Source: an uncultured Nitrososphaerota archaeon (GTDB lineage Archaea > Thermoproteota > Nitrososphaeria > Nitrososphaerales > CADDZS01). From it: a stretch of 64,000 nucleotides of DNA. The position numbers were made by a program, and so were the translations under genes. The stretch lies in assembly GCA_963799845.1 (NCBI GenBank), contig CAWCYI010000004.1, positions 1,824,001 to 1,888,000 on the forward strand, in the 5' to 3' direction. This document shows positions 20,844 to 40,769 of this stretch, piece after piece (the stretch's first letter is position 1; every line of letters starts with the position of its first letter). The notes under the pieces were generated by a model. It searched no databases, had not been told where the DNA came from, and worked only from the letters and a program-made list of their open reading frames with translations.

Positions 20844-21104
20844 TTATTCTTCCAAGAGGTATTCTCCCATTTCTCTAATGAGATTCCTCGCTTCCCGAAC
20901 TTTTTTGGAATTATCCTCTGCGTAAGATTTTATCTTAAGGAGAGCGAGTTCGATCGCTTGACTATTTCCCTTGCCTTGCTCAATAGAATCTTCGATTACT
21001 TCGGCTTCGAAAACTATCATTTGGTCAATGTCGATGCTCGAATGCATCAACAAATTCACTCTTTGTATTTCACCCGGTTCTTCTTGATCGATTTCTTTTA
21101 GCAA
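20844..21104 (-). CDS. Stand-alone DHp/HisKA-like helical protein (copy 1)
   Basis: NLLMHSSIDIDQMIVFEAEVIED aligns without gaps to DILTHDIVNYNQIIRLQAELMGD of kinase 49175; paralog of 40527. Confidence 0.6.
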   Translation of the reverse strand: MLKEIDQEEPGEIQRVNLLMHSSIDIDQMIVFEAEVIEDSIEQGKGNSQAIELALLKIKSYAEDNSKKVREARNLIREMGEYLLEE

Positions 21105-21323
21105 GAACTGGTCCCTTCAAACATCAACTATTGTAAATGCTTTCAGGTTATTATCTTTGCAGTAACAATGATCCCAATAATAGTGATCCGGTTCCTCAGG
21201 CAGCCTTAGCTGCTGCCTGTGTGAAGAGCCGGATTGCATCCAAACGAAGGTAACTCGCAGATTCTCAAAAATAGTAATATCGACGTTCTATACATCGATG
21301 CTTAGCATCTGTGAAATATAATC

Positions 21324-21524
21324 TCAGCTTTTCTTAGCGCCTTTTAGAGTCGCCCTAAAAGCAACATCCACCACTATGCCGGCCTGAATTTTTTCAACCG
21401 AGAATTTGTAAGTCTCGATATTCGCGTCTACTTTGCCCAAATATTGGTGAATCTGATTTCCGAATGAGACAAGCTGGGTCTTTGCATCTTCGAGAGAGAT
21501 TGATTTCTTGTCGTCTTCTTTCAT
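21324..21524 (-). CDS. Small hypothetical protein, paralog of 48223-48459
   Basis: Shared QL..(F/Y)G.QI..YL.KVDA..E.YKFSVEK...G...D..FRATL. Confidence 0.75.
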   Translation of the reverse strand: MKEDDKKSISLEDAKTQLVSFGNQIHQYLGKVDANIETYKFSVEKIQAGIVVDVAFRATLKGAKKS

Positions 21525-21554
21525 TTTTCGATCGGGTGTGAGTAGGTGCATATG

Positions 21555-21583
21555 CTATAAGAACTTGAGGTAAGATTGTACTA
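21555..21583 (-). promoter_or_regulatory. Recurrent upstream element plus TATA box
   Basis: TAGTACAATCTT-acctcaagttc-TTATAG. Confidence 0.55.
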
Positions 21584-21841
21584 AATTCTCTATCCTTTTC
21601 ATAGATAGGAGTTTCATTCTCCATTTTACCTTGAAGAAAGATATACCATCCGTTCTTCTCGGGTTGTGCTGGACTATCCTTCGGGAAGGTCGGCCACAGG
21701 TCTTACCTGGTCCCGAGAGGACTTTTCTAATTCTGTCTTTAGGTTATTGATGGGTCTGGGCATGATTCGGAAGTCCCAGATCATCTTTGCCGGAAAACTA
21801 ACAGGTTAGTTACGACGGGCAAGTCTACATTAGGAGACGCG

Positions 21842-22111
21842 ATGGCTGCAATTCTTAGAGGCGGGTTGATCTATTTTCTAGTATTTTATGGCGTGCATTT
21901 CTTTTTGGCAGCACTACAAGGTTCGCCGGCCATATTTCTTGCACTCATTCTCGCCTTGCTCGCTTGGTTGGCCGTCTATCGTGCTTCATTTGATAAGAGC
22001 TGGTTTGGCGCGTTAGGCATAGTTGTAGTCGCATGGCTAGTTTTGGTCGTTTTAGACGCGATTCTGATTGCAACACCAGGCGTGAGTCTTCCCAAATTTT
22101 ATCCCTTCTGA
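21842..22111 (+). CDS. Small membrane protein; 5' part appears decayed
   Basis: Three TM helices; the C-terminus WLAVYRASF...WFGAL...PKFYPF is shared with 60919-61070. Confidence 0.6.
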   Translation: MAAILRGGLIYFLVFYGVHFFLAALQGSPAIFLALILALLAWLAVYRASFDKSWFGALGIVVVAWLVLVVLDAILIATPGVSLPKFYPF

Positions 22112-22490
22112 ATTTGGGGATCCCCAGATCTCAATTTTCGAAGTTGGCGGTTATCTGCCGAGCATGTGTATGAGCGATTCAGCCAAACCCAAAAGAATCG
22201 GAAATGTGAAGTTCCGTCCAAATGTGTTTGATTTCGAGCACAATTCCTGCTTATTTCCTTAGCAGCATCCCAAATTCTTGTTTACGAAAAACTAGTCCAT
22301 TTGAAAGCATTTCGTTCTACCAAACTTACCAGCCCAGGGGTTTGGTTTGATTCATGTGCATTTGAGGCGAATTTCTGCTTGTGCAGATACGTAGAAAGCG
22401 CAGATCCCGTGCGTACTCCGACAAGTCTGAATTCGCTTCGAAGCTCAAACAGGAATGGATACTTTGGAAAAAAGCATGCCAGTTCTTGTC

Positions 22491-23426
22491 TTAGCTTTTG
22501 TTGGCATCACGTACTTTGATCTTGAGCTGGGTTCTTATTTCCAGTTTTTCATTTTCGTCTTTTTCTGATCTCACTTCCCTTGCATGGGAACCGTGGGTTT
22601 CCGCGTAAACTTTAGAAAACTGGGCGCCGAACAGGATAAACAGGTTCATTATGTATATCCACAAGAACAGGACCATGAGAGCGCCGGCGGTTCCTGCAAG
22701 AGTCGTGACTTGAAAGACGCTCAGGTATACGCCGAATAGATAGTTGAGAATCGTGAAGACGAAGGCGGTTATCGCCGCCGCTAACCACACATCTCCCCAT
22801 CTGACGAGTGTTTCAGGTAGCAATTTGAAGATGATGGCGAATAGAAGGGTTCCTAATCCCAGAGATAGAACGACCTGAAGGGATCTCAAGAACAGAGGAG
22901 CCATGCTGCCTATCAATGGAACGAGGATGAATACCATTGCGTTGAAGAGCACGGTCGAGAAGGTGGTCCAGGCCACCACAATGAGTGAAAGCCCCACAAT
23001 CAACAAGAACGGAACCGCTTTTTTTCTTACGCTCGCTAGCCTCCCTTGTTTGGTTGGTTCTACCTCCCAAATTGCATCCATAGATTTTTGTAAGACCGAA
23101 AACGCGCCGACCGCCCCGGAAATCGCGAAGGTGACGCTTATCAGAGAGCCAAAATAAGATGTTAACGGACTCGCCGCGTTCCTTAGAAGTTGAGCAAGAA
23201 GGGCCCCGACGGAGGAACCAGCAAACGAGCTTACTTGGTTAACGAGTTGTTGGAGGGCTTGTTGTTGCCCGTATACCTGTGCGAGTATCGCCACGGCAAT
23301 GAGCGCGAGAGAGGGTAGGGGCATTATCGTAAAGAACGTGAGCGCGCCCGCAGTCAGCGTGGCGTCATGTTTTTGCCACTTCGTGAAGGTAACTTTGATC
23401 AAGTCTGTGAATTCTTGCCTGTTCAA
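22491..23426 (-). CDS. YihY/virulence factor BrkB family membrane protein
   Basis: AGALTFFT..PL, IFKLLP...WGDVWLAA, GALMVLFLWIY...ILFGAQF. Confidence 0.9.
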   Translation of the reverse strand: MNRQEFTDLIKVTFTKWQKHDATLTAGALTFFTIMPLPSLALIAVAILAQVYGQQQALQQLVNQVSSFAGSSVGALLAQLLRNAASPLTSYFGSLISVTFAISGAVGAFSVLQKSMDAIWEVEPTKQGRLASVRKKAVPFLLIVGLSLIVVAWTTFSTVLFNAMVFILVPLIGSMAPLFLRSLQVVLSLGLGTLLFAIIFKLLPETLVRWGDVWLAAAITAFVFTILNYLFGVYLSVFQVTTLAGTAGALMVLFLWIYIMNLFILFGAQFSKVYAETHGSHAREVRSEKDENEKLEIRTQLKIKVRDANKS

Positions 23427-23471
23427 GGACTTGCCCCTCGCTTCACCATCTAAAAAATAGCGACGACCAGC

Positions 23472-24128
23472 TCAGATCATCATTTCTATCGCGGTATACA
23501 CGCTGTTGATGGCCAGAGCTCTTGTCTTTGTCACGAGCTGCAAAAGCGTGGGTTTCGCATCTGCGCCCAAGGTTGCAATTCGGCGACCCTTGTAGGAGAC
23601 CGTCAGGGTAATTCCTAATTTCTTGGAAGTCTCAGCAATCGTCCTCATCATGGCAAGGGGATTGGATTTTTTCTCATTCACTTTCTTTTCTCGCGCCTCT
23701 GGATTCTTGGGAGTAAGCTCGTTGCGGAACTTCATCACCCTTTTCATGAACTGTTTATCCTCCACATCAAGGTCTAATTGTCTGCCCGCTACCTTGACTC
23801 TAAGCACCTCTAAATCTCCCGTGGAAATGAGAACCCTCCCCGATTCGAATGCAGTCGCCCTATTGTCGCGCTGTTCTTGCGACATCTTCACCGCCCCGTA
23901 ACTCGCGTTTCCGTTCTTCTTGTGTATAACATTGAAGTCGAGCTCGCCGGCGACTTCGTATAGTTTGTCGTCGATGGTGAGTCTTATGTCCTGAACGTCC
24001 ACCCGGAGGCTAGATTTTCCTCCCACGAGCTTGTCGATTATTTCGGCTATGCGATCGGGCTTCCATTTTGAAAATTCTTGTTTCAGTTCTGACTGGTTAA
24101 AGACCGTCACGACGAAGCACCCTAGCAA
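23472..24128 (-). CDS. Hypothetical protein
   Basis: 218-aa ORF, co-oriented with and just upstream of YihY. Confidence 0.65.
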   Translation of the reverse strand: MLGCFVVTVFNQSELKQEFSKWKPDRIAEIIDKLVGGKSSLRVDVQDIRLTIDDKLYEVAGELDFNVIHKKNGNASYGAVKMSQEQRDNRATAFESGRVLISTGDLEVLRVKVAGRQLDLDVEDKQFMKRVMKFRNELTPKNPEAREKKVNEKKSNPLAMMRTIAETSKKLGITLTVSYKGRRIATLGADAKPTLLQLVTKTRALAINSVYTAIEMMI

Positions 24129-24563
24129 ACATCACGAGGGTCCAGGTGGCGACAGGTTTCGCTACTCACAACGCTTCTCCTTCGCCTTCTGGGGCTTTCT
24201 GCTTTAACTTCGATTCGTTACAATCTTCCTAACAAGATCTCTGTAACTATCTGCTCTGGATAGTGTGGTTCCAGCGCCCTCTACCTGTCAAAGAGGGATC
24301 CCAAGATCGAACAAAAGAAATCTACTGAAGGACGAGTAATTTGTACTGGACACCAGTAATGATTACAAGAATATGAATGTCTTACGGAGACTCAAATCAA
24401 TTAGTGATCACCAGATCATCAAAGAGGACGTGACTAACGATAGGTCATCGCTAGATGTTTTTCAAAGGAACGCTGATGCCTCATTCACGGCATTTTGAAT
24501 GGCAGTTTTTTCATTTATTTGTTGTTTGATAAATGAAGAATCCAGATTAGATAATGATTGAAA

Positions 24564-24953
24564 TTAATTCTTCACCATTTCTAGGCATTCACCGAGTTGT
24601 TCAATTGAAAATGGTTTCAAAAGGAAAGGAAATCCTGCTTCAGCCGCTTTCTGTTTCACGAAATCATAAGCCGACACGAGAATTATTTTTGTGTTCTTTT
24701 TGTATCTAACTATGATGTTGGCTGCTTCGATACCGTTCATCTCGGGCATTCGATAATCCATGATGATGATGTCAAAAGACTGGCGATCTTTAGAAAGGGC
24801 TTTGACTATCGACGTTCCATCATTGAATAGAGACGGAGATGGATATCCTAATTTTTCGATGACTTGTGAACAGAGACCGGGCAGGTCCGGCTCATCATCG
24901 ACGACTGCAATTCTCAGATCAGCAATTCTTGGACTGTTGTTCGTTGCGACCAT
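24564..24953 (-). CDS. Stand-alone response regulator receiver
   Basis: VVDDE, MDYRMPEMNG, KPF. Confidence 0.92.
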   Translation of the reverse strand: MVATNNSPRIADLRIAVVDDEPDLPGLCSQVIEKLGYPSPSLFNDGTSIVKALSKDRQSFDIIIMDYRMPEMNGIEAANIIVRYKKNTKIILVSAYDFVKQKAAEAGFPFLLKPFSIEQLGECLEMVKN

Positions 24954-25193
24954 TATCCCAAATTTGATTGGTACAGAACTAAATTTTCATAAAAGCGAAG
25001 CGCTCTCTTGCAATTTTCGCTACTGGGGAATTCTCCATTTTAGGAGAAAAAGCTCTTCGGGTATCGAGATTCGACATCCATTCTTAATACAGACTGCACC
25101 CCGATTTTCCAAAAATCACTTAAGTGAAACATGAATGACCCAAATCATTCAACCATTAACTCTAACTGCACTCCAATATCTTCCATGCTATGA

Positions 25194-25580
25194 ATGCGAA
25201 AGACATCCCATCTATCCAAAGAAACCTCCCATGACGTTACATCTAGGCGAAGTATGCCTAATCTGCAAGGACAAGGAATCTTTTTGAGTTTCGTCATTCT
25301 TGGAACACAGGCTGGAATCATCGGAATTCTACTCCTCCTTGCCGATGGATTAGTAATTGGAATAGCTGGAAAGAAAGCTCTGGCTTCAGTTCTCCTCATA
25401 ATTGTTTGCTTGGTTCTCGCTAGTTTCATCGGGCTCGTAATTCCTTTCTTAACAGTGAGCGACGTTTGGACTCAAGTAGTTAGTATTCTGAGTTCCCAAG
25501 CATCTCGCACCGGACCAATAATCTACTCATTTCCAGTGTTCTGGATTCTCGGTTTTGGCATCGGTGTGTGGAAAGGCTAG
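25194..25580 (+). CDS. Small membrane protein (family with 37130 and 43130); true start probably later
   Basis: DGLVIGIAGKK...FPVFWILGFGIGVWKG. Confidence 0.7.
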   Translation: MRKTSHLSKETSHDVTSRRSMPNLQGQGIFLSFVILGTQAGIIGILLLLADGLVIGIAGKKALASVLLIIVCLVLASFIGLVIPFLTVSDVWTQVVSILSSQASRTGPIIYSFPVFWILGFGIGVWKG

Positions 25581-25645
25581 TTAGAATCCGCTGTATTTTA
25601 ATTGAAGTCTAATCATATCACTTTTCTGGAGATGCCAGTGAGGAT

Positions 25646-27346
25646 TTGACGAGTGCTGTCGAACGCACAGAAGTTCTGACAGATCAGAAGTTAGTTATGG
25701 ACAGGGCTCTCGCCATTTTCTCCAACGCGAAGAATGGGGTTGACATACTCGCGGAAGCGATGGCTCTCCCGGAATCAGAGCAATCTCAAGAGGCCAAGAA
25801 CGCGGCGGAAGCATACTTCGACATAAAGAAGAGGGGAGGACGCCTGAGGATACTCACTAAGATTGACGTGAAGAATGTTTCGTACAGTAAGGAGCTAATG
25901 AAAAACGTAGAACTTCGTCATCTTGACGACGTAAAGGGGAACTTTGCGATAAGCGACAGCGAGTACATTTCTTCTCCGACGGGCACAACTTTTCGCCCTA
26001 ATATCATGGTCCCCGTCATCTATAGTAATGCCAGACCTTTCATTGAGCAAAACAGAAATGCGTTCGAGAGATTCTGGTATATGGCCACGCCTGCAGAGGA
26101 ACGAATCAAAGAAATTGAGGAAGGGATTGTTCAACCCCGGATTGAAATAATAAACAACCCGGACCAGATTCTAAAGCTGCATTTCGATCTAGTTATCCAA
26201 GCCAAAGAAGAAATTCTGGTCATTTTGCCAACTGCTAACGCGTTCCATCGCGAAGAGAGAATCGGGGTAATTGAAGCTCTGAAGATCGCCGCCTCAGAAC
26301 GAGCAGTGAAGGTCAGCATAATCGCTCCAGATTCCCTCATTCAGGAGACTCTCGGATCTTTGAACAGAGAGACACAGGCACACGCCGGGAGAGAACTGAT
26401 TAACCACAGGCGTATTCTTGAAGCCACTACTCCTAACACCGTAACTGTTCTCGTGGTCGATAGAAATTCCTCACTCGTCATCGAAGAGAAGGATGACTCG
26501 CAAGCCGATTTTGGCAAAGCAATCGGCGTGGCCACCTATTCGACTAGGAATTCCATGGTGCTCGCAAACGTTCGGTTCTTTGAGAGAATGTGGGAAGAGG
26601 TTGAACTCAGGGAGAGGGAAAAGGTTCTCCTGGAAAGGGAGAAACGAAGCAGAAAAGCTGCAGAACTTTTGCAGGACATCATGGCGCACGACATCAGGAA
26701 CTACAATCAGATTTCCAAGACCAGTGCCGAAATGTTGAAGGCTGACTTGCAGAGCACACAAAGGCTATCTCTTATTGATTCGATACTGAAAGCAACAGAC
26801 GGTTCAAGCGAGCTGATCGATAGGGCTAAGAAACTGGGAAGGATAATCTCGCAGGTGGAAATAGAGCTCCATCCTGTCGATCTCAAAGATTCGCTGGAAA
26901 CATCGGTAGCCTTGATAATAAAGTCCCATCCTCAAAGGTCAATCAATCTTTCATCCTCTGTAGAATCGGGAGTACGAGTGTTCGCGGATAATCTGTTGGA
27001 GGAAGCGTTCACTAACATAATGTCTAACTCGGTCAACTACACTGAAACAGATGAAGTTCCTGTTGAAATTCAAGTGGAAGAGACCGAAGAAGAGACTCTT
27101 GAAAGAAAAAGGATGCCGTACTGGAAGATAACTTTCACTGATCATGGAGAGGGCATACCGGACAAGATGAAGGACAAAATATTCACGCGTTATCTGAACA
27201 CATCAACTGGAGCGGGCCTTGGACTCTCAATAGTCTATGCGCTGGTGGTGGAGAGGTATTCGGGAAAAGTGAAAATCACAGATAGGGTGAAAGGAGACTA
27301 CGCAAAGGGGACAAAGGTGGAAGTATGGTTACCAAAAGCATCTTGA
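25646..27346 (+). CDS. Cytoplasmic sensor histidine kinase with tandem TrmB/PLD-like N-terminal domains
   Basis: H-box AHDIRNYNQ, N-box NIMSNSVNY, G1 DHGEGIP, G2 GAGLGL; ELRHLDDVKGNFAISD sensor motif; no TM helix. Confidence 0.92.
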   Translation: MTSAVERTEVLTDQKLVMDRALAIFSNAKNGVDILAEAMALPESEQSQEAKNAAEAYFDIKKRGGRLRILTKIDVKNVSYSKELMKNVELRHLDDVKGNFAISDSEYISSPTGTTFRPNIMVPVIYSNARPFIEQNRNAFERFWYMATPAEERIKEIEEGIVQPRIEIINNPDQILKLHFDLVIQAKEEILVILPTANAFHREERIGVIEALKIAASERAVKVSIIAPDSLIQETLGSLNRETQAHAGRELINHRRILEATTPNTVTVLVVDRNSSLVIEEKDDSQADFGKAIGVATYSTRNSMVLANVRFFERMWEEVELREREKVLLEREKRSRKAAELLQDIMAHDIRNYNQISKTSAEMLKADLQSTQRLSLIDSILKATDGSSELIDRAKKLGRIISQVEIELHPVDLKDSLETSVALIIKSHPQRSINLSSSVESGVRVFADNLLEEAFTNIMSNSVNYTETDEVPVEIQVEETEEETLERKRMPYWKITFTDHGEGIPDKMKDKIFTRYLNTSTGAGLGLSIVYALVVERYSGKVKITDRVKGDYAKGTKVEVWLPKAS

Positions 27347-27840
27347 TCGTTCGACAGGTCTATCCGCCCAGTTTCGCCACTTTGATAAGCTCGACCACAG
27401 ATTATTCAGGAAAATCGAATCGGATCGGACAGAACACTCATTTTTCAAACGATCAAGGCGAGACTGGAAGGCATAGCAGCAAGAGCATCGCGATAGTGGA
27501 TGATGAGGAAGACTTGTGCTCGTTGTTTTCAATGTTGATCAAGAATTTAGGATATCACGCGGCGTGTGTTGCCCATGACGGAGATGAAATTGTTCAACTT
27601 GTGTTGGAGGATAGCATCCACCCGGATCTGATATTGATGGACTACCGCATGCCTACGATGAATGGCATGCAGGCAGCCGAGAAGATTCTGCACGTCAGGC
27701 CGGAGACAAAGATAATCATCGCCACTGCCGACGACTCGGTGAGGCGAGATGCGATTTCTGAGGGGTTTTTCTTCATACAGAAACCTTTCTCCATATCGGC
27801 ACTCGCCAAGAAAATAGAAGAGGCATTAGGACAGCGATAG
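27325..27840 (+). CDS. Response regulator receiver (start uncertain)
   Basis: IVDDE, MDYRMPTMNG, TA, KPF; directly follows the kinase. Confidence 0.88.
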   Translation: MVTKSILIVRQVYPPSFATLISSTTDYSGKSNRIGQNTHFSNDQGETGRHSSKSIAIVDDEEDLCSLFSMLIKNLGYHAACVAHDGDEIVQLVLEDSIHPDLILMDYRMPTMNGMQAAEKILHVRPETKIIIATADDSVRRDAISEGFFFIQKPFSISALAKKIEEALGQR

Positions 27841-28044
27841 TGAGTCGACCTAGAACATCCGAAGCGATATGCCATGATCATGTATCGAAGTTCCATATGG
27901 AGGAGTCATCCTCTCATCATCTGATTTATGAACTACGAGATATTTCAAGGTTGGTCCTATTTCTCTCGCCTATTGATTATACACAGGTCTTCTAGTCTGC
28001 AGTTTCCAAGATGTTATCAGCAGCAAACTCTATTACACGCAAAC

Positions 28045-29105: not shown

Positions 29106-30141
29106 TCTCTTATCAAACAATTATTTCGCTCCATAGTCAACAAGGTTAGGCTGGGGGACTATTGGAGGAGCATCTGGAAGAAGCATGGCTATGGGTCAAG
29201 AAAGCTTTCAGAGGAAAAGGTGGTGTGGGTGGTCAAGGCTAGAGAGAGCGGCCTTGCAGCCAGGGATATCGCATCAACCCAGAACATCACCGTGAGAAGA
29301 GTGGAGCAGCTTTATGCCCAATACAGGGAATCCGGAGAGATACCATCTCTCAAGAAGGCAGGCAGAAAAAGAATCGAGATCCCAATTGAGGAGAGGAATG
29401 CGATCATCGAAGCTTCAAGGAAGTTTGGCGTCGGAGCCTGCTACCTCGTTTCAATCCTCAAGAGAGATTACGGCATCGATGAAACAAACCACATGCGAGT
29501 CTATAGCGTATTGAAGGAGGAAGGATTGTTGTACAATACAGCAAGGACGCGCTTCAAGCGCAAGTGGATCAGATATGAAAGGGAGCATTCCAATTCGTTG
29601 TGGCACGTCGATTGGCACGAGATGAAATCGTCAGTATACAGGGGCAAGTGGCTGGTAATCTACGAGGATGACGCATCGAGGTACATCCTGGGTTATGGCG
29701 TGTTTGACTCTCCGTCGTCTGAAAATGCAGTGAGCGTCCTGAAGGAAGCGATCAGGGAACATGGCAGACCAGCATCAATCCTCTCAGACAGAGGTACATC
29801 CTTCTATGCGGTCGAAGCTGAAACAAAAACGAAAGGTCTCACTGAATTCGAGCTCTATCTGATGAGGAATCACATCAAACATATTCTTTCAAGAGTGAGA
29901 CATCCCCAAACCAATGGAAAATTGGAGAAGCTCTTTGATACGGTTGAAAGAGGACTCGCGAAGGGATTCTCTCCGATTGAGGAGTGCGTACGCTGGTACA
30001 ACTGCATCAAGCCCCACGGAGCCCTTGATCTGGAGAGAGCTGAAACTCCACTGGAAGCCTACTACAGGAAGATGGAAATAAAAGAGGAACTCATAGATCC
30101 TTCAATCATGTGGGAGAGCGAAATGATTCTTTGATAGAACA
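29106..30141 (+). mobile_element. IS481-family insertion sequence
   Basis: Imperfect ~26-bp terminal IRs (tctcttatcaaacaattatttcgctc versus the reverse complement of the right end, tgttctatcaaagaatcatttcgctc); flanked by the 15-bp direct repeat CATCTTAAGATAATT (29091-29105 and 30142-30156). Confidence 0.88.
29220..30134 (+). CDS. IS481-family DDE transposase (true start probably ATG 29191 via a 1-bp indel)
   Basis: RYEREHSNSLWHVDW, DDASR, ILSDRG, HPQTNGKLEK, YN..KPH. Confidence 0.9.
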   Translation: MVWVVKARESGLAARDIASTQNITVRRVEQLYAQYRESGEIPSLKKAGRKRIEIPIEERNAIIEASRKFGVGACYLVSILKRDYGIDETNHMRVYSVLKEEGLLYNTARTRFKRKWIRYEREHSNSLWHVDWHEMKSSVYRGKWLVIYEDDASRYILGYGVFDSPSSENAVSVLKEAIREHGRPASILSDRGTSFYAVEAETKTKGLTEFELYLMRNHIKHILSRVRHPQTNGKLEKLFDTVERGLAKGFSPIEECVRWYNCIKPHGALDLERAETPLEAYYRKMEIKEELIDPSIMWESEMIL

Positions 30142-32830: not shown

Positions 32831-33748
32831 TACTTGAAGGGAACTGAGACTTGAAGGTGAACTCCGGCTTTTGGGGTCCCTCTTTATCAAGGAATCCAAG
32901 ATAATTGTTCTAATTTTGATAGAACAGTTTACTGACATTGTCTGACCGCATGAAAGTGGTTGAGAGCCTTTCCCAAACCCCAGATAATTGGAAAAATGCA
33001 GGGGTATACTGCTCTAGGAATTTTTAGATCGCTGTGATTTTGGAGTATTCGGCGTTGCCTCCTCCTCCTCCGTCAAAGGGTACGGCTTTGTGTCTTTCTT
33101 TTCCTTTGAAGATCTATCAAGTTTGTCAGGTGTGGGAGCTTTCGTCGGCTCCTACTTTCGAGTCATATCCTGGTTTTCGGTTTTCTTCATGAAATCAACT
33201 CTTGTTTATCTGGGAAAATATAGACCCCTATCTCTCAACCTATGAGCGAGAAAAGCCTCCATAAATCGCGCAGATGCTTTGAAGTTTTTTCGCTAGTCTT
33301 GCTCTCTTGTTTGTATCCGACTAGTTGTTGCTTTGGCATGATTCCCCTCAAAAAGACGATTGATAATTTCAATTATTTGTCGCAATCACAAAGAAAAAAG
33401 TTCTAGATCAATCAATTCTCAAGAATTAGTGGGTGATCGATCTCGGTCGTTCAGCCCGTTTCTTAACTGAGAAATATCTAAGCGGGCATATCCAGCATCA
33501 AGAATTATAATATGCGCTAGCACCTTTACGAACTAAAGATTAACTACAAGAGCGCGCTCTCTCTTGGAATCCTAAAGATTGCTCTCAACTTCGAGAACCT
33601 AAATATTCGTTGATCCGCGTGTTTTTTTGAATGATCCTTTTTCTCAAAATCTTATATGGCATAAATGAATTTTTGGCGGATTTCTTTGTTAGATAAGATT
33701 GTAACCTTTCATTAATCAATTTAGGGAGGAACAAATCTTCTGGTCTTA

Positions 33749-33895
33749 ATGCCAAAGGGAAAAACTCACCGTTTTACTTCGAAAGAACACAGGCAAGCCG
33801 AACACATCATAGAATCAGAGGAAAAATTGGGTAGGTCCAAAGAAAGGGCCAAAAGAATTGCGTATGCGACTGTCAATAAACAAAAAAAGTCTTAA
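33749..33895 (+). CDS. ChaB-like/'plasmid stabilization'-type stress microprotein (not in the ORF track)
   Basis: MPKGKTHRFTSKEHRQAEHIIESEEKLGRSKERAKRIAYATVNKQKKS; paralog of 40141. Confidence 0.75.
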   Translation: MPKGKTHRFTSKEHRQAEHIIESEEKLGRSKERAKRIAYATVNKQKKS

Positions 33896-34096
33896 TTTTG
33901 GAAAGACTGAATTTCAAAGACTAATTTAATCGGCGCTCCAAAAGACTCTCGAAAAGTAGTAAATCGGTTTGTGGTACAATATTGACTGCCCAATGCGATG
34001 ATTATTAGAGCACCATAACCCCTCTGATATTTCAGTATAGAGAAATCATCGCATATGCTGAAATAAGACGACTGCATTAATTCAGACAGTGAATTA

Positions 34097-34945
34097 TTGA
34101 CCTTGGCTAACGAAAATATCACTACAGCCTCCACCGTAGATTGGAAAGAAATACAAAAGAAAGAGGCGAGAGGAGTAAACGGCTTTAACTTGGGAGAAGT
34201 TCAAGATTCAGGCCCCTCCTATGTCCACACACAAAAGGGAATTGCCAAGAAGGAACAATTCTACATTCCAAAATATTTGGTCGAAGGATACGATGGCAGT
34301 ATCTTGTGGTTCAACGTGTCTGAGGCCCAGGCACCTCAACTCGTACTCACTAGCCCGCCGTCAGACGAGGAATACAGAACGCGATACAGAACAAAAGAAA
34401 TGCGATCCGATATTGAGAAAACGATTCCAGTGATCAAGCGATCGCTTACGGGAAATCAAAGATTACTGAGGGATGTTTTGGTCGATGAAATGAGAGATCT
34501 TTACCATGCAGAAAATCAGCTCGTTAACGCACTGCCGAAAATGTCGGAGGCCGCGCGCGATCCACAGTTGAAATTATCATTTCAAAACCATCTTGAGCAA
34601 ACAAAGTTGCATGCAACTCGCCTTGAACAGGCTTTCAATATGCTTGGCGAACCCCCCCAGGGAAAACCGTGCAAAGGAATGATGGGTCTGATTCAGGAAG
34701 GTGAAGAGGAGATTATTGAAGGAAAGCAAAAGGAGGCCTTTGCAGCCGATCTCGGGTTAATCACTGCAGCTCAAAAGGTTGAGCACTATGAAATCTCTGG
34801 TTATGGTACCGTTAGAACCATGGCAGAAAAAATAGGCAAGCAAGATATTGCCTCATTGTTGCAGCAGACGGAAATGGAGGAAAAACAGACTGACCAATTG
34901 CTTACTCGGGCAGCAATGCCAATGCTGGACCGAGCATCAATGTAA
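34097..34945 (+). CDS. PRC-barrel-like domain fused to DUF892 (YciE/YciF) ferritin-like domain
   Basis: N-terminal KKEARG...LGEV...FYIPKYLVEGYDGSILWF; C-terminal DLYHAENQL..ALPKM, CKGMMGLI.EG, AAQKVEHYEISGYG. Confidence 0.88.
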   Translation: MTLANENITTASTVDWKEIQKKEARGVNGFNLGEVQDSGPSYVHTQKGIAKKEQFYIPKYLVEGYDGSILWFNVSEAQAPQLVLTSPPSDEEYRTRYRTKEMRSDIEKTIPVIKRSLTGNQRLLRDVLVDEMRDLYHAENQLVNALPKMSEAARDPQLKLSFQNHLEQTKLHATRLEQAFNMLGEPPQGKPCKGMMGLIQEGEEEIIEGKQKEAFAADLGLITAAQKVEHYEISGYGTVRTMAEKIGKQDIASLLQQTEMEEKQTDQLLTRAAMPMLDRASM

Positions 34946-35466
34946 CATAACCCGCATAATCGAAAGATAATGCGCTTTCGCAAAATCTGAATTTCACCTG
35001 GATAATTCATCGAACTTCAAAATTCGCAAGACGTCAAAACCGTTTGAATCTCTTGACTCTGAAATCGATAAAGGATCTAGCGTCACAAGATTACGACAGA
35101 AGACTCAAAGGTGTGTTCGCAATTCAGACGGAAAATTGCCAAGAGTGTCGCAGACGCGTTGAGTGTAACCCTCCTTACAACCGAGAAAGAGGACTTAACG
35201 ATGGGATACTGACAACACTCAGGCTCATACCCTGTATCTGAAGGGCTGAAATGGAGTGTCGCTAACCAGATTCCTGAACTCGTTGGTTTCCGGTTCCCTC
35301 GTATTTTTAGATGACATTGGAAATCCAATGAAGCTTGTGAGACAATCTCGACGGCACCCATTCAGTAGTGCTTTTTGAATTTTCTAACTAAAGATAATTC
35401 TATAGAAATCAATCTTTATAATTATTAGTCATTTGGAGTTGATACTCTTGAGGATGAGAGAGGTCA

Positions 35467-35607
35467 ATGTCAGCATTGATGAAATGTGAAGTGTGCGCCG
35501 ATATTTTCAATAAAAGACAAGAATTAGAAGTACATTATAGAGCGGAGCACAACCCGGAATCAAAAAAATCGAAGCAGAGTAACCTTCATCCAAGATTAAT
35601 CGAGTGA
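35467..35607 (+). CDS. C2H2 zinc-finger microprotein (not in the ORF track)
   Basis: MSALMKCEVCADIFNKRQELEVHYRAEHNP... Confidence 0.7.
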   Translation: MSALMKCEVCADIFNKRQELEVHYRAEHNPESKKSKQSNLHPRLIE

Positions 35608-35615
35608 TTATCGAA

Positions 35616-35780
35616 TTGTCAAAACACCTCCTGCAAGGGGAGAAAGATAAGATCAAGGGAAAGCTTCGCGTGGCAAAAGGAAGAATAAGCGGTAATCGGA
35701 CAGAAGTGGTGAAAGGAAGGCTTCAGCAAAAGAAAGGGATTCTGAAAAAGAAAATTTGGCGATTGAGGTACCGCCTATAG
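35616..35780 (+). CDS. CsbD-like general stress microprotein (not in the ORF track)
   Basis: DKIKGKLRVAKGRISGNRTEVVKGRLQQKKG matches the CsbD pattern DK.KGK.K...G..TG....EG...Q..G. Confidence 0.65.
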   Translation: MSKHLLQGEKDKIKGKLRVAKGRISGNRTEVVKGRLQQKKGILKKKIWRLRYRL

Positions 35781-36072
35781 ACTTCGTGTTTCCACTATTT
35801 ATTTTATGTGCAACGTCATCCTTAGCGCTTTTTACGAGCGCTCATGGTCTCCCCACTTTCCGGTACAATTCCCTAGGCATAGCCAATGTCAATTAGAAAA
35901 GAATCCCATGACTCTTTTTTCAAAGATTCGACTAGACGATTCCCCGTAAACTTTCTTCGGATTTCAATAAGATTAAGCACGCTCGATCGAGAATTTTTCA
36001 AAAGAGACTTTTGGAAAACTTGCAGCGGCATCCATTTAGAGTACAAAGGCTATCGAGATACTCGATAATGTC

Positions 36073-36258
36073 ATGGGATTAGTCAATCTCGCAATCCTGG
36101 TCTTGATTTTATTCATCGTTTTCGCAGTCTTAGGATTCTGAGGCATAGCGGCAGCTCTTGGAAGCATTCTGTACCTTCTCATCATCGTTATCGTGGTCAT
36201 ATTCGTCGCAAGTCTTGTAGCTGGAAGATCTTGGTACGGATTAGCCCTAAGACAATAA
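36073..36258 (+). pseudogene. DUF1328 (UPF0391/YtjA-like) membrane microprotein with in-frame TGA at 36139
   Basis: MGLVNLAILVLILFIVFAVLGF*GIAAALGSILYLLIIVIVVIFVASLVAGR. Confidence 0.7.
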
Positions 36259-36619
36259 AAGTCGTTTATGATTTCTATTTTGATCTAACGACAAACTTCA
36301 TTTGCAAAAACTGAACCAACTTCAAACAAGTTTCTAAAAAAGTTCGATGCATTAATCTTATCACTAATTCTTAAAGAAGCTCGAATCTCACTGAACGAAT
36401 TACTTCAACGGCAGATTCACAGACTGTCCGCGATCGTCCGACTCGTAAGCCGCCGGAACGATTTCAATCATCGCCCGCCTCAGGAGTTGTCTGTGATATT
36501 TCGCGCTCACCAATTATTCCCCGGGAACTCGATTGAAACGTCGGTTCTCCTAAGCCGTAGGTGGAGGTTTAACGCGGATGTAGGGAAAACGCTTCTGTCA
36601 TGATAGAAAACGACCGCTC

Positions 36620-36886
36620 TTAATTTTCGTCAGCTAAATATTTTGAAATTAATCCTTTCATGATTTCGTAATCAATTTCGTCAGCAGGAATGATTCTGTA
36701 TGCTCTTTCTTCACTTCGAATAGTCTCTTTTCGAATGATTAATCCTTTGGTTTCTAAACCTTCGCATATTTTGGAAATAATCCCTGAACTTAGACCAGTT
36801 GAACTGACAAGATAAGATTGGTAGACACCTTCTCTTATTTCTGATGTTATTTTCTCGACAATGTCCCTGTCGGGATTCCCTCCCAT
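36620..36886 (-). CDS. Small winged-helix protein
   Basis: GVYQSYLVSSTGLSSGIISKICEGLETKGLIIRK. Confidence 0.7.
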   Translation of the reverse strand: MGGNPDRDIVEKITSEIREGVYQSYLVSSTGLSSGIISKICEGLETKGLIIRKETIRSEERAYRIIPADEIDYEIMKGLISKYLADEN

Positions 36887-37129
36887 TTAGATAGGCCACA
36901 TCCCTTCTCACGCAAGAAAGTGATTTGGCTAGACTCCAATTAAAATATAGCGAATCGAGCTTTGAGATCCTCGGTCTTTCTCAGTCGAGGCGAAAATAGA
37001 CACTGTCGCTTCGGTTTAACTCACTACTTTCGCTTGTTTTTCGAGGTGTAGGCAAGCAAAGCAATGTCTGTGACTGGTCGGCGCATTATTCCGAGGAAGA
37101 GCGCCTGCTCCATACATGAAGGATTCTAG

Positions 37130-37429
37130 CTACCCTTTCCACAGTCCGATGCCGAACCCGATAATCCAGAAGATCGGAAACGCGTAGAATACAGCCCCGA
37201 TGTGGGACGCCTGAGAGAGGAAGATATCCACGATGCGGCTCCAGACATCCGACAGACTGATGAAGGGAATTGAAAGACCAATGGCACCGGCGAGAACAAG
37301 CCCCACAACTATGAGAATCGCGGAACTTATCCCCTTCTTTGCGGCGAGCCAAAGACCAGTCCATCCGCGAATAAAAGTACTATCGATACGACTCCGGCTA
37401 TCGTCGTTGGAGGCGCGATCAACTTTCAA
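37130..37429 (-). CDS. Small membrane protein (family with 25194 and 43130), frameshift near 37350
   Basis: LLFADGLVFG in one frame and LAAKKG...FPIFWIIGFGIGLWKG in the next. Confidence 0.65.
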   Translation of the reverse strand: MKVDRASNDDSRSRIDSTFIRGWTGLWLAAKKGISSAILIVVGLVLAGAIGLSIPFISLSDVWSRIVDIFLSQASHIGAVFYAFPIFWIIGFGIGLWKG

Positions 37430-37436
37430 ATCACCT

Positions 37437-37745
37437 TTATGTTTGTACTAGTGAAGGTTCAGGGGGCGCGTTTTGTTTTAGACTTTCATTTCGCACTTTC
37501 GCAGATGGCATTAGCTCTTTGATCTCTTCGTATGCATTCAAGAATTTGAGTCCTTTTTCCGTTATTAAGTAAAGTCGAGCTCCTTCATCATATCTTACCA
37601 AGTCTCTGTCCTGGAGCAGGCCGAGATATTCAGACAGTTGGGCGTACGATAAGTAAGCGCTGTACATTATGCGAGTCTTGGTCGTACCTGATCCGATTGA
37701 CCGCAACATGCTGTCGATAATTTCTGTGCTGCTTCTGTACTTCAT
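37437..37745 (-). CDS. HTH_45-type winged-helix regulator (paralog 2)
   Basis: MKYRSSTEIIDSML...TKTRIMYSAYLSY.QL.EYL...ITEKG. Confidence 0.9.
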   Translation of the reverse strand: MKYRSSTEIIDSMLRSIGSGTTKTRIMYSAYLSYAQLSEYLGLLQDRDLVRYDEGARLYLITEKGLKFLNAYEEIKELMPSAKVRNESLKQNAPPEPSLVQT

Positions 37746-38176
37746 GATTTTGGTAAATGCGGGACATGGTGTGGAATATTAACAGTTTGGAACAATGTTT
37801 GTTTCGAGTCTAGTTGATATTCACATATTCTCCATTTTTGGATAATACACAGAGCCCGTCGATAAATTAAGTCAGCATAGGCTTTGGATTCCCTGGAGAA
37901 GCGTCCTCCTCGCTTTTGAAAACGGATCGGACACCTGTTATAGATCCGGAAAAGACGGATGTGGTCTATCCTTTGGATACAATCTTCGATCACCTTACTT
38001 TTGCTGAGCGAATTTATCGCTGAATGAATTCAAAAGATCTCCCTGACTCCAGTGCCTCTTGATTTCTTTTATTGCTTTGAGTAGCTGATGATGGAATCGG
38101 ATCTTCCGAAGTGTTTGCAGTATTCGGATCTACGGTCAAATGGGCCTTGTGGTTACAATCTCAATGCCATTTCATT

Positions 38177-38443
38177 TCAAGTATGAGGCTCGCGATTGGA
38201 GTCGTTTCCGGAAATAAATGGGTATACACCTGCCAGAACTTCGGCTTCGGTGGCGCGGAGGTAGACTCTTTCTCCATCAAAAGTTGCCACTGACTCCTTG
38301 GGAATCCGAAGTAATCGCATACCTCTGACTGCTACAAGAAGAGGGCCGTCGCCTTCTTTGGTATGGCCAACTTCCTTGTTATCACAGCTTTTGACTTCTT
38401 TTCCCGTTATTTCGGCGTCCTGCCAGGTTGGAACAGTTATCAT
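38177..38443 (-). CDS. Stand-alone PRC-barrel-like protein
   Basis: GKEVKSCDNKEVG...RIPKESVATFDGERVYL; similar to the N-domain of 34097. Confidence 0.65.
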   Translation of the reverse strand: MITVPTWQDAEITGKEVKSCDNKEVGHTKEGDGPLLVAVRGMRLLRIPKESVATFDGERVYLRATEAEVLAGVYPFISGNDSNREPHT

Positions 38444-38464
38444 GACTAGTTAAAATGAAAAGTG

Positions 38465-38493
38465 CCTAATATGTTCCCACAAGATCTTTCTAG
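38465..38493 (-). promoter_or_regulatory. Recurrent upstream element plus TATA-like box
   Basis: CTAGAAAGATCTT-gtgggaaca-TATTAGG. Confidence 0.5.
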
Positions 38494-38674
38494 TAAGAAG
38501 GAACTAGGAGATTGACTTTTCATTTTACTAATGGGTTACTTCCAAAAGGCGGTTCCTTACAGAATTTATTTTACTAGAAGATATTCCTGAAATTTTATTT
38601 GACCATCGTTAAATTCATCCGCGGAACTCTGAGGTTCCACAGAATCGTTTTAAAATTGCTAAAGGTGACAAGAA

Positions 38675-39625
38675 TTGGCGCAAGAATTCGATAAATTATT
38701 AGTCGCAATCGATGACTCAGATATTGCCGATCAAGTATTGCATCTTGCGATTGGCATTGCTCTTCCCGATTCATCCAGGCTCGATGTACTCCACGTCGTG
38801 AATCCCTCTCCTTCTACGGCAGTCGAGATTCCATCTCCATTGCTTGGGTCGTCTGTTCCTCCGGTTATTCCCCTCCCGGCCGACTCTGCTCAAAGCACCC
38901 CCGAGGATTCGGATTCAAATGCCAAGTTAAAGGGTGAGGAACTTCTCGCCGAAAGTAAAGCTGAGATTCAAAAAGCTTCACAGAATTTTAGTAGCGATAA
39001 GAAACTCCAGTGCGATACTATTTTACTCAGATCCTCCGACGTTGCTAGAGAGATAATCAGGACATCAAAAGAGGGAGCTTACGACCTAGTGATAGTTGGC
39101 AGTCGAGGCCTCGGCATTCTCAAGAGCTTCTTTCTCGGAAGTGTCTCAAAAAAGGTCGCCAAGGAAGCTAAGTGTTCGGTCCTCGTTGTAAAGAAAGCGT
39201 CCGGCACCCTCAATAGGTTTCTCCTTGGATACAACGGTTCCGAAGAAGGAAAGAAAGCTCTCAACATTGGTGCAAGTCTTGGTAAGAATTTCAATGCGGA
39301 AATTGATCCGATATGTGTGGTCAGTATTCCTCCTATCATGCCTACTATTGAACAATCAACCATAAACAATCTTGAAGGAGAAATGAAATCTTATGCGGCT
39401 GATGCTGTTTCATCCCTCAAGAATCAAGGTGTCCCTACGTCTAAGGGAATAGTGATCGATTCACCGAGCATATCAGGAGCGATAGAGGAGTATTCTACCA
39501 AGAACTCCTACGATCTTGTTATCGTTGGAAACCACCCGAAAGGGAAACTGGAAACCCTTCTGCTAGGGAGTGTGTCTTTAGACGTCGTCGAACAATCAAA
39601 AACCAATGTCCTCGTGGTCAAATGA
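38675..39625 (+). CDS. Tandem-domain universal stress protein
   Basis: Two USP domains, DLVIVGSRG...LGSVS and DLVIVGN...LLGSVS. Confidence 0.92.
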   Translation: MAQEFDKLLVAIDDSDIADQVLHLAIGIALPDSSRLDVLHVVNPSPSTAVEIPSPLLGSSVPPVIPLPADSAQSTPEDSDSNAKLKGEELLAESKAEIQKASQNFSSDKKLQCDTILLRSSDVAREIIRTSKEGAYDLVIVGSRGLGILKSFFLGSVSKKVAKEAKCSVLVVKKASGTLNRFLLGYNGSEEGKKALNIGASLGKNFNAEIDPICVVSIPPIMPTIEQSTINNLEGEMKSYAADAVSSLKNQGVPTSKGIVIDSPSISGAIEEYSTKNSYDLVIVGNHPKGKLETLLLGSVSLDVVEQSKTNVLVVK

Positions 39626-40140
39626 AAAATTAGGCCGATTCCGACTACAATCCCACATGGGACAATGCAGCGCCACACCGAAATGTGATTGTCCCTCGAG
39701 GATCCTTGTGGAAAGTGAAGTGGTTGTTTTTTGATTAGTAAACAGGAATCTTAGTTTCTGTCTAACCTTCAGAATATTTCTTAGAAACAAGAAAGACTGC
39801 TTGAAAAAGCAGCTTGAATCAAGAGTTTCCTCTCATTTCTAATTCGATTTCAATTTCCCTTAGTCGAGCTCTTATCTGGTTTCTAGGAACTATCCATAGC
39901 ACAAGTCCACGAGGAGTTAATCTTCTACACTTTGCGATGTTAGCTTCCAATACCACCATCTGATTTTTGTAATCTTGAATACAGGATTTCAACCGATCAT
40001 TATTTAACTCTGCGAACAGCTTGTTGAACCATCTGATTTTTCTTTCGGATAGTTCACTAATTACTAGAGATTTTTGCAGAAATCACACCACTTGTCCCAC
40101 CTCAGTTCATTGAAAAATCCGCAAATCATTTTCACTGTTC

Positions 40141-40329
40141 TTATTCTTCTCGCACCTCGCGTGACAGATCTTTTTGTACAGTTCTCCACTCTATTTCCTC
40201 CGCACGTTCTGGCGAATCACCACGGGCCTCCTCACTTCGCTCTATGTGCTCTGCCATCCTGTCTGCCTTTTCGGTGTGTTCATGGCCTCCTACGCCTCTT
40301 CGAATTTCGCTATGTTTCTTGCTCGGCAT
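40141..40329 (-). CDS. ChaB-like stress microprotein, paralog of 33749
   Basis: RMAEHIERSEEARGDSPERAEEIEWRTV. Confidence 0.7.
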   Translation of the reverse strand: MPSKKHSEIRRGVGGHEHTEKADRMAEHIERSEEARGDSPERAEEIEWRTVQKDLSREVREE

Positions 40330-40526
40330 AATTAGCTTGGACTGGAATTAGAGCAACAAGAGCTTGCGAAATTTGAACTAGAGGATTATCCCCTAATTTT
40401 GTATACTAATTTTACAAGCTTTCATAGATTATGATTTATCAAAATTGTAAGTGACTTTCTTATTGAATAATGGCTGCAAAGATGTAACAATGACTTTTGA
40501 ATAAAGCTATTTACTCTCTGAAGCGA

Positions 40527-40769
40527 TCAATCCATTCCTCGGACTAGATTACATGCCGCTCTGACTCTTCTGGAATTTTCCTCTGCGTAGGATCTTATTT
40601 TCAGGAGAGAAAGTTCGATCGCTTGACTATTTCCCTTGCCCTGCTCAATAGAATCTTCGATTATTTCGTCCTCGAAAACTATCATTTGGTCAATGTCGAC
40701 GCTCGAATGCATCAGTAAATCTACTGTTTGCCTTATCCCAGGCTTATTGGGATCCACTTCCTCTAGCAA
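40527..40769 (-). CDS. Stand-alone DHp/HisKA-like helical protein (copy 2)
   Basis: DLLMHSSVDIDQMIVFEDEIIED; close paralog of 20844. Confidence 0.6.
   Translation of the reverse strand: MLEEVDPNKPGIRQTVDLLMHSSVDIDQMIVFEDEIIEDSIEQGKGNSQAIELSLLKIRSYAEENSRRVRAACNLVRGMD

Follow-up and report, generated by a model that had tools for sequence, protein, structure and literature searches.

Two small genes in the window (the whole 64-kb stretch of DNA that was analysed) raise the question of whether the DHp hairpin of a sensor kinase can exist as a protein in its own right, and of what such a protein would do. Copy A lies at 20844-21104 (minus strand, 86 aa) and copy B at 40527-40769 (minus strand, 80 aa), the latter ending six residues before the end of A; both have a TTG start. 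The first-pass annotation saw in them stand-alone DHp-like proteins, working either as a minimal His relay or as a decoy for a kinase. The available data lead us to propose, with a probability of about 0.6, that the small proteins are DHp-derived and dock receivers, with relay, phosphatase or sequestration as candidate roles.

The two ORFs are indeed paralogous, with 58 of 79 residues identical (73%, E 3e-42), and the 4.6-Mb genome contains no further copy. Values of dN/dS range from 0.13 to 0.21 when copy A is compared with B and with the homologous loci L005 and L006, and from 0.09 to 0.21 in pairwise comparisons across the small-protein genes. The TTG start is conserved in all six loci read (A, B and L005-L008), in agreement with the proposal that the genes have starts of their own. 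The similarity of the upstream regions, also pointed out in the first-pass annotation, can be narrowed down by DNA alignment of A with B to a common block of 24 nt, AAAGATAATAAC(C/T)TG(A/C)AAGCATTT, made of the A/T-rich, TATA-like AAAGATAATAAC and 12 conserved bases. It is located 54 nt upstream of the TTG of copy A (21135..21158, minus strand) and 53 nt upstream of that of copy B (40799..40822, minus strand). The block is also recognisable in L005-L008, and is thus kept together with TTG in the six loci; it may be regarded as a candidate promoter. Copies A and B are real, selected genes with separate starts. For the region 20300-21700 around copy A, a look-up of RNA data listed no record. Existing gene calls in this genome (P0003, P0006) start both of them at Met20, immediately preceding the His. 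Because the gene caller starts at Met20 and both Pfam and NCBIfam are blind to the proteins, the family is easily overlooked.

The family is narrow and belongs to Nitrososphaerales. The search returned eight close homologs plus another 11 representatives 70-105 aa long, and a survey of 300 additional genomes from the order turned up a match in 5; the full set comprises 25 stand-alone members. No Pfam family reaches its curated cut-off for A or B, as expected from the claim that no ATPase or sensor domain is present, and the HisKA-clan models match neither A nor B, nor any other of the 19 members examined, at E ≤10. Nothing scored above the NCBIfam cut-off for the six members searched. The small proteins match neither the thaumarchaeal NitrOD output domains PF18549, PF18550 and PF11537 (Galperin et al. 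2018), which occur fused to REC, nor Hpt (PF01627), and their predicted structure has two helices whereas Hpt is a monomeric four-helix bundle. A family-profile search for longer or REC-fused forms of 185-2000 aa found none at E ≤0.01, though this counts as weak evidence. Apparent long members were set aside: P0016 (1178 aa), an adhesin built of CshA/Big_9 repeats, and P0015 (5191 aa), which contains no matched stretch, were treated as artefacts, and the weak match in G023 (E 0.003), which falls in C-terminal helices of a protein of 186 aa, was taken as chance. A pattern scan of genome contigs with the family alignment gave 76 pattern matches, of which none was confirmed.

The AF2 model of copy A is a confident helical hairpin (helices 12-42 and 48-85, pLDDT 86.6, pTM 0.71), the fold anticipated at the outset, and the small proteins terminate 1-6 residues past helix 2. 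Structure searches bring back generic hairpins. Foldseek found no PDB match at E ≤0.001, its top rows being designed hairpins and Mediator; with VIA-align, ESCRT-III, prefoldin and designed hairpins reach Z scores of about 9, and 121 chains lie at Z ≥8, with no kinase among the chains listed in the wide search. Because the matches are generic and the list contains no kinase, the fold search cannot decide identity. Family profiles run against PDB sequences gave nothing below E 0.1 and no kinase, and the ESM Atlas returned no usable match.

Closer comparisons point to the kinases of the lineage itself. On the sequence evidence, the closest relative of the small proteins is the DHp of the sensor kinase 49175-50989, located at 49649..49840 (minus strand; residues 384-447, H-box LLQDILTHDIVNYNQ, helix 2 AIEGSTSLLERARKLGK) ahead of a HATPase_c domain at residues 495-602. 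In the alignment of this kinase DHp family, D387, H391, D392, N395 and Q398 are invariant. The helix 1 alignment quoted in the first-pass annotation is BLASTP's own output, ungapped, with 7/23 identities, 16/23 positives and His on His, and is weak for a single pair (E 0.031); the alignment of helix 2 is borne out if a 3-residue difference in the loop is allowed. When the 25-member family was compared with the DHp core of 102 kinases using hhalign, both helices aligned, His on His, with a score of 34.5, a probability of 87.5% and a P value of 3.6e-6, which, like the other single-test P values given here, overstates significance because the comparison was chosen after reading the window. The reversed-template control scored 13.9. 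Among 150 heptad-preserving shuffles (mean 13.3, maximum 23.5) none reached 34.5, nor did any of 120 shuffles in a second periodicity-preserving set reach the real score. With whole-kinase alignments, the single best match is again the DHp (residues 387-447, probability 50.7%, P 1.6e-4), the family's best match falling there within a kinase profile of 630 columns, and the score rose from 28.3 to 35.9 after six more distant members were added. The kinase DHp core itself corresponds to canonical HisKA with 96% probability, and the kinase profile matches solved HisKA kinases. The direct comparison of the family with 30 canonical HisKA domains of the order gave a probability of 1.2% (P 0.04) in the same register. 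In a family HMM search of 31,593 ORFs, kinase 49175 ranks fourth with a non-significant E of 0.78, and the remaining kinases with this type of DHp fall at ranks 412-3081. Overall, as judged from these profile comparisons, the small proteins most probably derive from a DHp of kinases belonging to their own lineage.

The position-by-position comparison with the class-I kinase DHp of Nitrososphaerales (H-box LLQDILTHDIRNYNQ) shows what was kept and what was changed. Both are two-helix hairpins of equal length with the same hydrophobic pattern, and helix 2 ends alike (A..L.R). They share D at H-4 (19/25 members, 102/102 kinases), L at H-2 (21/25, 89/102), Q at H+7 (23/25, 102/102), A at H+13 and E/D at H+14. 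The His itself, found in both window copies (N-L-L-M-H-S-S-I-D-I-D-Q around His21 in copy A), is universal in the kinases (102/102) but kept in only 21 of the 25 small proteins; the other four carry E, E, R and D at this place, which goes partly against the His conservation expected at the outset and speaks against a relay as the core function of the family. The small proteins differ from the kinases in having neither sensor nor HATPase_c. Moreover, the Asp that is invariant at H+1 in the kinases (102/102) is Ser in both copies, as originally noted, and in 18 members overall (Ala in three, Asp in two), the acid being absent from 23 of 25. Asn, found at H+4 in 102/102 and at H+6 in 95/102 kinases, gives way to D/E in 24/25 and to D in 21/25 members, respectively; the four His-less members retain the acidic residues at both positions. 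Finally, a Glu is fixed at H+12, where the kinases vary.

The note that first described these genes had suggested modelling with local receivers. A three-chain complex was modelled from two copies of the hairpin and the stand-alone 122-aa receiver 53970..54338 (minus strand, Pfam Response_reg E 5e-24), which in the model docks in a kinase-like manner. The ipSAE is 0.68 (0.66-0.70 in three runs) against 0.08 for the best control, and an unrelated 89-aa protein put in place of the hairpin scored 0.00. Among solved complexes, 116 of 157 attain the mark used, as do 2 of 215 mismatched pairs, although the present model, with shallow alignments and three chains, is unlike that calibration. The three runs have at least 88% of contacts in common, with a partner pLDDT of at least 81. 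In the model, the receiver sits, as on a DHp dimer, on helix 1 of one copy, including His21 (residues 21, 24-25, 27-32, 35 and 39), and on helix 2 of the other (residues 59, 62-63, 66, 70 and 73-74). On the receiver side, contacts involve residues 10-23, 54, 81-83 and 104-109, and the invariant D52 and K104 adjoin or fall within the last three of these stretches. In EnvZ, with the His at 243, T250 (H+7) and L254 (H+11) are described as major receiver-specificity positions (PMC2991266). It should be noted that the score obtained may reflect a likeness to solved kinase-receiver complexes.

The small genes lie within the two-component island of this soil archaeon's genome. The window holds five of the genome's seven HATPase_c matches and eight of its ten Response_reg matches; it encodes five kinases and eight stand-alone receivers. 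A second kinase with an HDIRNYNQ-type DHp (25646..27346, plus strand) is followed by a receiver at 27325-27840. A third kinase of the same DHp type (44470..46171, minus strand) is split over two frames by a frameshift near 44972-44976 and is followed by a receiver at 43940-44473. Inspection of the window revealed no hybrid kinase, and a search of the genome (86.7% complete) gave no Hpt domain. The direct neighbours of the two genes are small and of stress type (Usp, DUF6582, DUF2795 and a ChaB-like ORF), and the ortholog of copy B in L006 has neighbours in common with it, DUF6582 upstream and the small ChaB-like ORF downstream. The homolog in G242 lies divergently next to a receiver gene whose product shares 51% identity with 53970-54338 by BLASTP; a 657-aa ORF beside that receiver has the look of an antisense artefact in a GC-rich genome. 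At five of six outside loci (L007, L009, G143, G011 and G275), no kinase or receiver was seen in the 4-10 kb readable on each side. The two-component linkage is not maintained across other genomes.

According to the favoured explanation, the family of about 80 aa would have arisen from the DHp hairpin of Nitrososphaerales HDIRNYNQ-type kinases by loss of the sensor and ATPase parts. Two copies would pack as a four-helix bundle, on which a stand-alone receiver would dock as on a kinase, through the exposed face of helix 1 (His21, I24, D25, D27, Q28, F32, E35) and through the second protomer's helix 2. Having neither an ATPase nor the H+1 acid, the small protein should be incapable of autophosphorylation and would target the phosphorylation state of receivers. 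It might do so in two ways, between which we divide our expectation about evenly. His21 could accept phosphoryl groups and pass them between receivers, as in Spo0B; or the action could be His-independent, the protein promoting dephosphorylation of receivers or holding them, which would account for the stronger conservation of H+4, H+6 and H+7 relative to the His. A Spo0E-like or CheZ-like phosphatase, with an acid and an amide on one helix face, has no Pfam support and was retained only within the second of these possibilities.

How strictly should the relay be understood? The His21 of a DHp-only dimer could be an obligatory phosphoryl carrier between stand-alone receivers, which amounts to taking the first possibility as the sole function and therefore overlaps with the favoured explanation. 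In its favour, both window copies and most members possess the His, the modelled contacts include His21 and receiver residue 54, next to the invariant D52, receivers outnumber kinases in the window, and the genome has yielded no Hpt domain. Nevertheless, four members have replaced the His while retaining the acids at H+4 and H+6, the polar H+4, H+6 and H+7 are conserved as well as the His or better, and the window offers no visible hybrid kinase as a starting point. We consider this strict form possible, if not the expected outcome. The decoy, in which the hairpin would pair with the DHp of a full-length kinase, chiefly 49175-50989, to give a dead heterodimer blocked in autophosphorylation, appears quite improbable. 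It is true that the DHp nearest to the family is that of a single orphan kinase lying 8-28 kb off, and that the helix 1 hydrophobics match this kinase at H-3, H-2, H+5, H+8, H+9, H+11, H+13, H+15 and H+16. However, the most strongly conserved residues are polar and belong to the modelled receiver face (D25, D27, Q28, E33) rather than in the core, where H+2 and H+3 are S/A and I as against I and R in the kinase. As the modelled and conserved surface faces the receiver, a receiver-directed role fits better than a heterodimerising decoy.

Alternatively, the proteins may be unrelated to kinases, for instance a stress-induced hairpin, the DHp likeness coming from amphipathic periodicity and chance identities and the docking passing by resemblance. 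This would agree with the lack of curated family matches, the generic fold matches, the small stress-type genes alongside and the missing two-component linkage at most other loci. It remains unlikely, given that no periodicity-preserving shuffle attained the real score in either set, that six conserved positions around the His coincide in register, and that the unrelated control protein failed to dock. Of the original interpretation, the stand-alone hairpin, its probable descent from the DHp and the modelled docking of a receiver find support.

The receiver-docking hairpin proposed here can be compared with several known proteins. In Bacillus, Spo0B is a kinase-derived histidine phosphotransferase with a DHp-like hairpin bearing a His; it docks receivers as a dimer and does not autophosphorylate. 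Spo0B and ChpT both retain a C-terminal ATPase-like alpha/beta domain, for a total of about 200 aa. The small proteins would resemble them in being kinase-derived, in their DHp-like His hairpin, in their inability to autophosphorylate and in their predicted dimeric receiver docking, but they end with the hairpin and have no such C-terminal domain. Family profiles run against PDB sequences gave no sequence match to either protein. DivL-type pseudokinases illustrate how a DHp without phospho-His can work by binding a phosphorylated receiver, and Sda that a small hairpin is able to regulate a kinase. DivL differs from the small hairpins in being a large multi-domain protein, and Sda in being a 46-aa protein of unrelated sequence. 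The histidine phosphotransferase role of ChpT is documented in Caulobacter (PMC3433190).

Archaeal proteins with a HisKA but no HATPase domain, mainly from Archaeoglobi and Methanomicrobia, are described by Galperin et al. (2018, PMC5847659), where phosphoacceptor, phosphotransfer or receiver-phosphatase roles are proposed for them. Like the small proteins, they combine a DHp-like domain and a conserved His with the absence of an ATPase. However, they carry N-terminal PAS, GAF or other sensors and match the HisKA model (PMC5847659), whereas the present proteins are bare, Pfam-invisible hairpins of Nitrososphaerales. The statement that no archaeal example had been described must accordingly be restricted to the minimal 80-aa form, which was not found in the portions of the literature consulted. 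In SMART, 1556 of 42,417 HisKA proteins lack HATPase, and split kinases are possible among those of bacteria (PMC3591291). The separation of the domain from the ATPase is common to these and to the small proteins; 711 of the 1556 retain the HE/DxxN/T motif (PMC3591291), unlike the small proteins, whose H-S-S-I-D has neither the H+1 acid nor N/T at H+4. In EnvZ, the acid at H+1 (D244) is reported to be required for autophosphorylation (PMC2991266).

Among the response regulators of Thaumarchaeota, about three quarters are described as bare receivers with no known output or wiring (PMC5847659). In such a network, a kinase-derived hairpin docking receivers would be a concrete and testable node. 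It would, moreover, demonstrate that a DHp is able to persist under selection as a free-standing 80-aa protein, which bears on the origin of phosphorelay proteins such as Spo0B from kinases. Taken further, and tentatively, for we hold this doubtful at present, the family might represent the smallest histidine phosphotransferases yet proposed: in ammonia-oxidising-type archaea, an 80-aa DHp hairpin dimer devoid of an ATPase-like part would carry phosphoryl groups from one to another of the many stand-alone receivers, and those members that lack the His (E, R, D) would serve as locked regulators of these receivers. If true, this bare-hairpin shuttle would give Thaumarchaeota a phosphorelay despite their lacking Hpt domains and hybrid kinases.

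The two small proteins are encoded on the minus strand by copy A (20844-21104, 86 aa) and copy B (40527-40769, 80 aa), both of which start with TTG and whose products are identical at 58 of 79 positions. No further copy is found in the 4.6-Mb genome (9 contigs, 86.7% complete). The likeness of the two genes at the DNA level extends no further than the coding sequence and some 60 nt 5' of it. In both cases, a 24-nt block, AAAGATAATAAC(C/T)TG(A/C)AAGCATTT, is placed 53-54 nt 5' of the TTG codon. The block and the TTG start are present again in four metagenome loci (L005-L008), and the block may correspond to an archaeal promoter of the TATA/BRE type. Pairwise dN/dS values among these six genes range from 0.09 to 0.21, which indicates purifying selection on the minus-strand frame. 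The two open reading frames proposed in the first-pass annotation, with their own starts and similar upstream regions, are well founded. In the protein collection, translation of both genes is called from Met20 (P0003, 67 aa; P0006, 61 aa). This start is too late, since many relatives carry Ile or Leu at residue 20 and since D(H-4) and L(H-2), counted from the central histidine (His21 in copy A), are conserved upstream of it. Between the two copies, dS is 0.40 for codons 17-60 and 1.3 and 1.4 for the N-terminal and C-terminal parts; either gene conversion homogenised the middle of the gene or an extra constraint acts there on the DNA or RNA.

A word-indexed search yielded 8 relatives of 61-97 aa, and phmmer, run in full on 1.84 billion representative sequences, gave 14 matches, twelve of which are 70-105 aa long. 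Two long matches were rejected as artefacts: P0015, a repeat protein without the matched stretch, and P0016, a CshA/Big_9 repeat adhesin. The final alignment (A6) comprises 25 stand-alone proteins, and profile searches found no longer member in the range of 185-2000 aa, although this absence is weak evidence. The proteins can be regarded as stand-alone, as had been proposed. Of 300 other genomes of the order, five contain a match: one belongs to the taxonomic family of the present genome, and four to a single genus of a different one. The six other genomes of the same genus (58-87% complete) contain none. No Pfam or NCBIfam model matches the small proteins.

The relationship of these proteins to the dimerisation and histidine-phosphotransfer hairpin (DHp) of sensor kinases is visible mainly at the profile level. 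The same DHp is common to the local kinases 49175-50989 and 25646-27346, the frameshifted 44470-46171 and the fragment 13817-14401. The Pfam HisKA model misses this domain. Nevertheless, it is a true HisKA relative: compared with 30 canonical HisKA domains from the order, its profile gives probability 96% and P 1.8e-9, and the kinase profile finds solved HisKA kinases. The alignment of the small proteins to kinase 49175-50989(-), claimed in the first-pass annotation, is supported by profile-profile comparisons but weak at the sequence level: BLASTP with copy A gave only E 0.031 and, in HMM-to-sequence comparison, this kinase ranked fourth (E 0.78) and its sister kinases 412-3081, none significantly. 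With the DHp core of 102 kinases as target, 19 family members gave a score of 24.9 (probability 47%) and 25 members one of 34.5 (87.5%, P 3.6e-6); against whole-kinase profiles, the score increased from 28.3 (12%) with a smaller family to 35.9 (50.7%) with 25 members. Every comparison aligned the same 60 columns, covering both helices with His on His. Reversed-template controls scored 15.7 and 13.9; the real score was reached by none of 100 column shuffles and by none of 120 and 150 heptad-preserving shuffles (maxima 21.5 and 23.5). D(H-4), L(H-2), the histidine and Q(H+7) are conserved in the family and the kinases alike; Asp/Asn at H+4 and H+6, Ala at H+13 and Glu/Asp at H+14 are also shared. 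A motif built post hoc from these positions, hence not an independent test, matches 4 of 31,593 genome ORFs, namely both small proteins and two kinases. With canonical HisKA, the small family reaches only P 0.04. Moreover, the comparison with the DHp was picked after the window had been read, which counts against homology. Overall, we estimate at about three in four the probability that the small proteins are homologous to the kinase DHp.

An AlphaFold2 model of copy A (8 sequences) is a two-helix hairpin (helices 12-42 and 48-85; pLDDT 86.6, pTM 0.71). Fold searches with it returned generic hairpins only and allowed no discrimination. The window is the two-component island of the genome, with five of its seven HATPase_c matches and eight of its ten Response_reg matches, and all eight receivers are stand-alone. 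Docking on a local receiver, in line with the earlier proposal, was obtained in a model combining two hairpin copies (alignment A6) with receiver 53970-54338 (alignment A7), which scored 0.68 (runs 0.66-0.70) vs 0.08 for the best control. Of 157 solved complexes, 116 reach this score mark, as do 2 of 215 mismatched pairs; the present model may owe its pass to resemblance to solved complexes, and its alignments and its use of three chains depart from the calibration. At least 88% of contacts recur between runs, and the pLDDT of the partner is at least 81. The predicted interface involves residues 21, 24-25, 27-32, 35 and 39 of one hairpin copy, 59, 62-63, 66, 70 and 73-74 of the other, and residues 10-23, 54, 81-83 and 104-109 of the receiver, whose invariant D52 and K104 lie beside or within these stretches. 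This arrangement is the canonical geometry of kinase-receiver complexes. In EnvZ (His at 243), T250, L254 and A255 are the major specificity positions (PMC2991266); Q28 and F32 of the hairpin, at H+7 and H+11, correspond to two of the three. The model shows the hairpin dimer being treated as a DHp, and actual binding would go beyond it. Outside this genome, linkage to two-component genes is loose: in genome G242 the homolog is divergently oriented next to a receiver gene whose product is 51% identical to receiver 53970-54338, and no kinase or receiver is found within the 4-10 kb read on each side in L007, L009, G143, G011 and G275.

As had been noticed at first reading, the proteins lack an ATPase and carry Ser at H+1; self-phosphorylation is therefore not expected, and mutation of the corresponding D244 abolishes autophosphorylation of EnvZ (PMC2991266). 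Two readings, about equally likely, have the proteins act on receivers. Phosphorelay by way of His21 is favored by the place of this residue in the modelled contact set, by the excess of receivers over kinases and by the lack of any detected Hpt domain in the genome (86.7% complete). The histidine itself, the conservation of which was in question, speaks for both readings: it is kept in 21 of 25 members but replaced by E, E, R and D in the other four, all with acids at H+4 and H+6. These replacements speak for an action that does not need His, in which the receiver would be dephosphorylated or held, as does the fact that H+4 (24/25), H+7 (23/25) and H+12 (23/25) are more conserved than His. 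A receiver-phosphatase role was proposed for archaeal HisKA-only proteins in PMC5847659, and HDxxN of the kinases fits the HE/DxxN/T phosphatase motif as given in PMC3591291, with Asp/Glu replacing Asn in the small proteins. The third idea, that of a dominant-negative decoy for kinases, is a poorer fit to the data, as the positions under conservation are polar and would, according to the model, be turned toward the receiver.

Several features of the surroundings may be mentioned. The region 11800-63600 contains five HTH_45 winged-helix genes and, at 29220-30134, an rve integrase gene; its GC content is 0.41-0.46, compared with 0.47-0.48 for most contigs and 0.51-0.53 for the opening 8 kb of the window. 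This region may be variable or acquired. HTH_45-type genes also occur at distances of 0.4-4 kb from the small gene in several loci (L007, 6491-6793; L017, 5647-5985; L020, 10472-10756; window, 37437-37745), which may be due to chance, given how common this gene family is in the genomes concerned. The island is partly duplicated: receiver 24564-24953 shares 69% identity with receiver 11822-12232 and 68% with receiver 60318-60716. The kinase fragment 13817-14401(-), a truncated duplicate of 194 aa without an ATPase domain, has a DHp nearly identical to that of kinase 25646-27346. The HDIKNYNQ-type kinase 44470-46171(-) is split by a single frameshift, the first frame ending ...VERGKKLR at 44972 and the second being open from 44976 (GKILSEE...) through the ATPase domain; a faulty assembly, a pseudogene or a split kinase would each account for this. 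Copy B is flanked by a DUF6582 gene (41114-41335), a C2H2 zinc-finger ORF (40907-41071, 54 aa) and a ChaB-like ORF (40141-40329, 62 aa), and its ortholog in L006 likewise by DUF6582 and ChaB-like ORFs. In L009, a distant family member adjoins a membrane-protein gene (8395-8949(-)) whose product resembles, by eye, that of 51286-51846(+) beside kinase 49175-50989 (...VWSGRPSVS... vs ...VWAGRPSVS...).

Kinase-derived phosphotransferases are exemplified by Spo0B and ChpT. SMART counts 1556 HisKA proteins without HATPase among 42,417 (PMC3591291). The statement that no archaeal example had been described appears to stand for the bare 80-aa form but not for archaeal HisKA proteins without ATPase, which are known; those in PMC5847659 carry sensor domains, in contrast to the hairpin studied here. 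No published description of such a bare hairpin was found in the literature searched. Within the order, a 130-aa stand-alone protein without ATPase that matches canonical HisKA (E 7.6e-9; locus L051, G023:C1:352700-356900, 1859-2251(-)), with Asp in place of the expected His in its H-box (FADKLRNPL), is a second, independent kind of small DHp-only protein. What is new here is a bare 80-aa hairpin matching no curated model, with an altered H-box (H-S-S-I-D-x-D-Q), confined to a few lineages of Nitrososphaerales.
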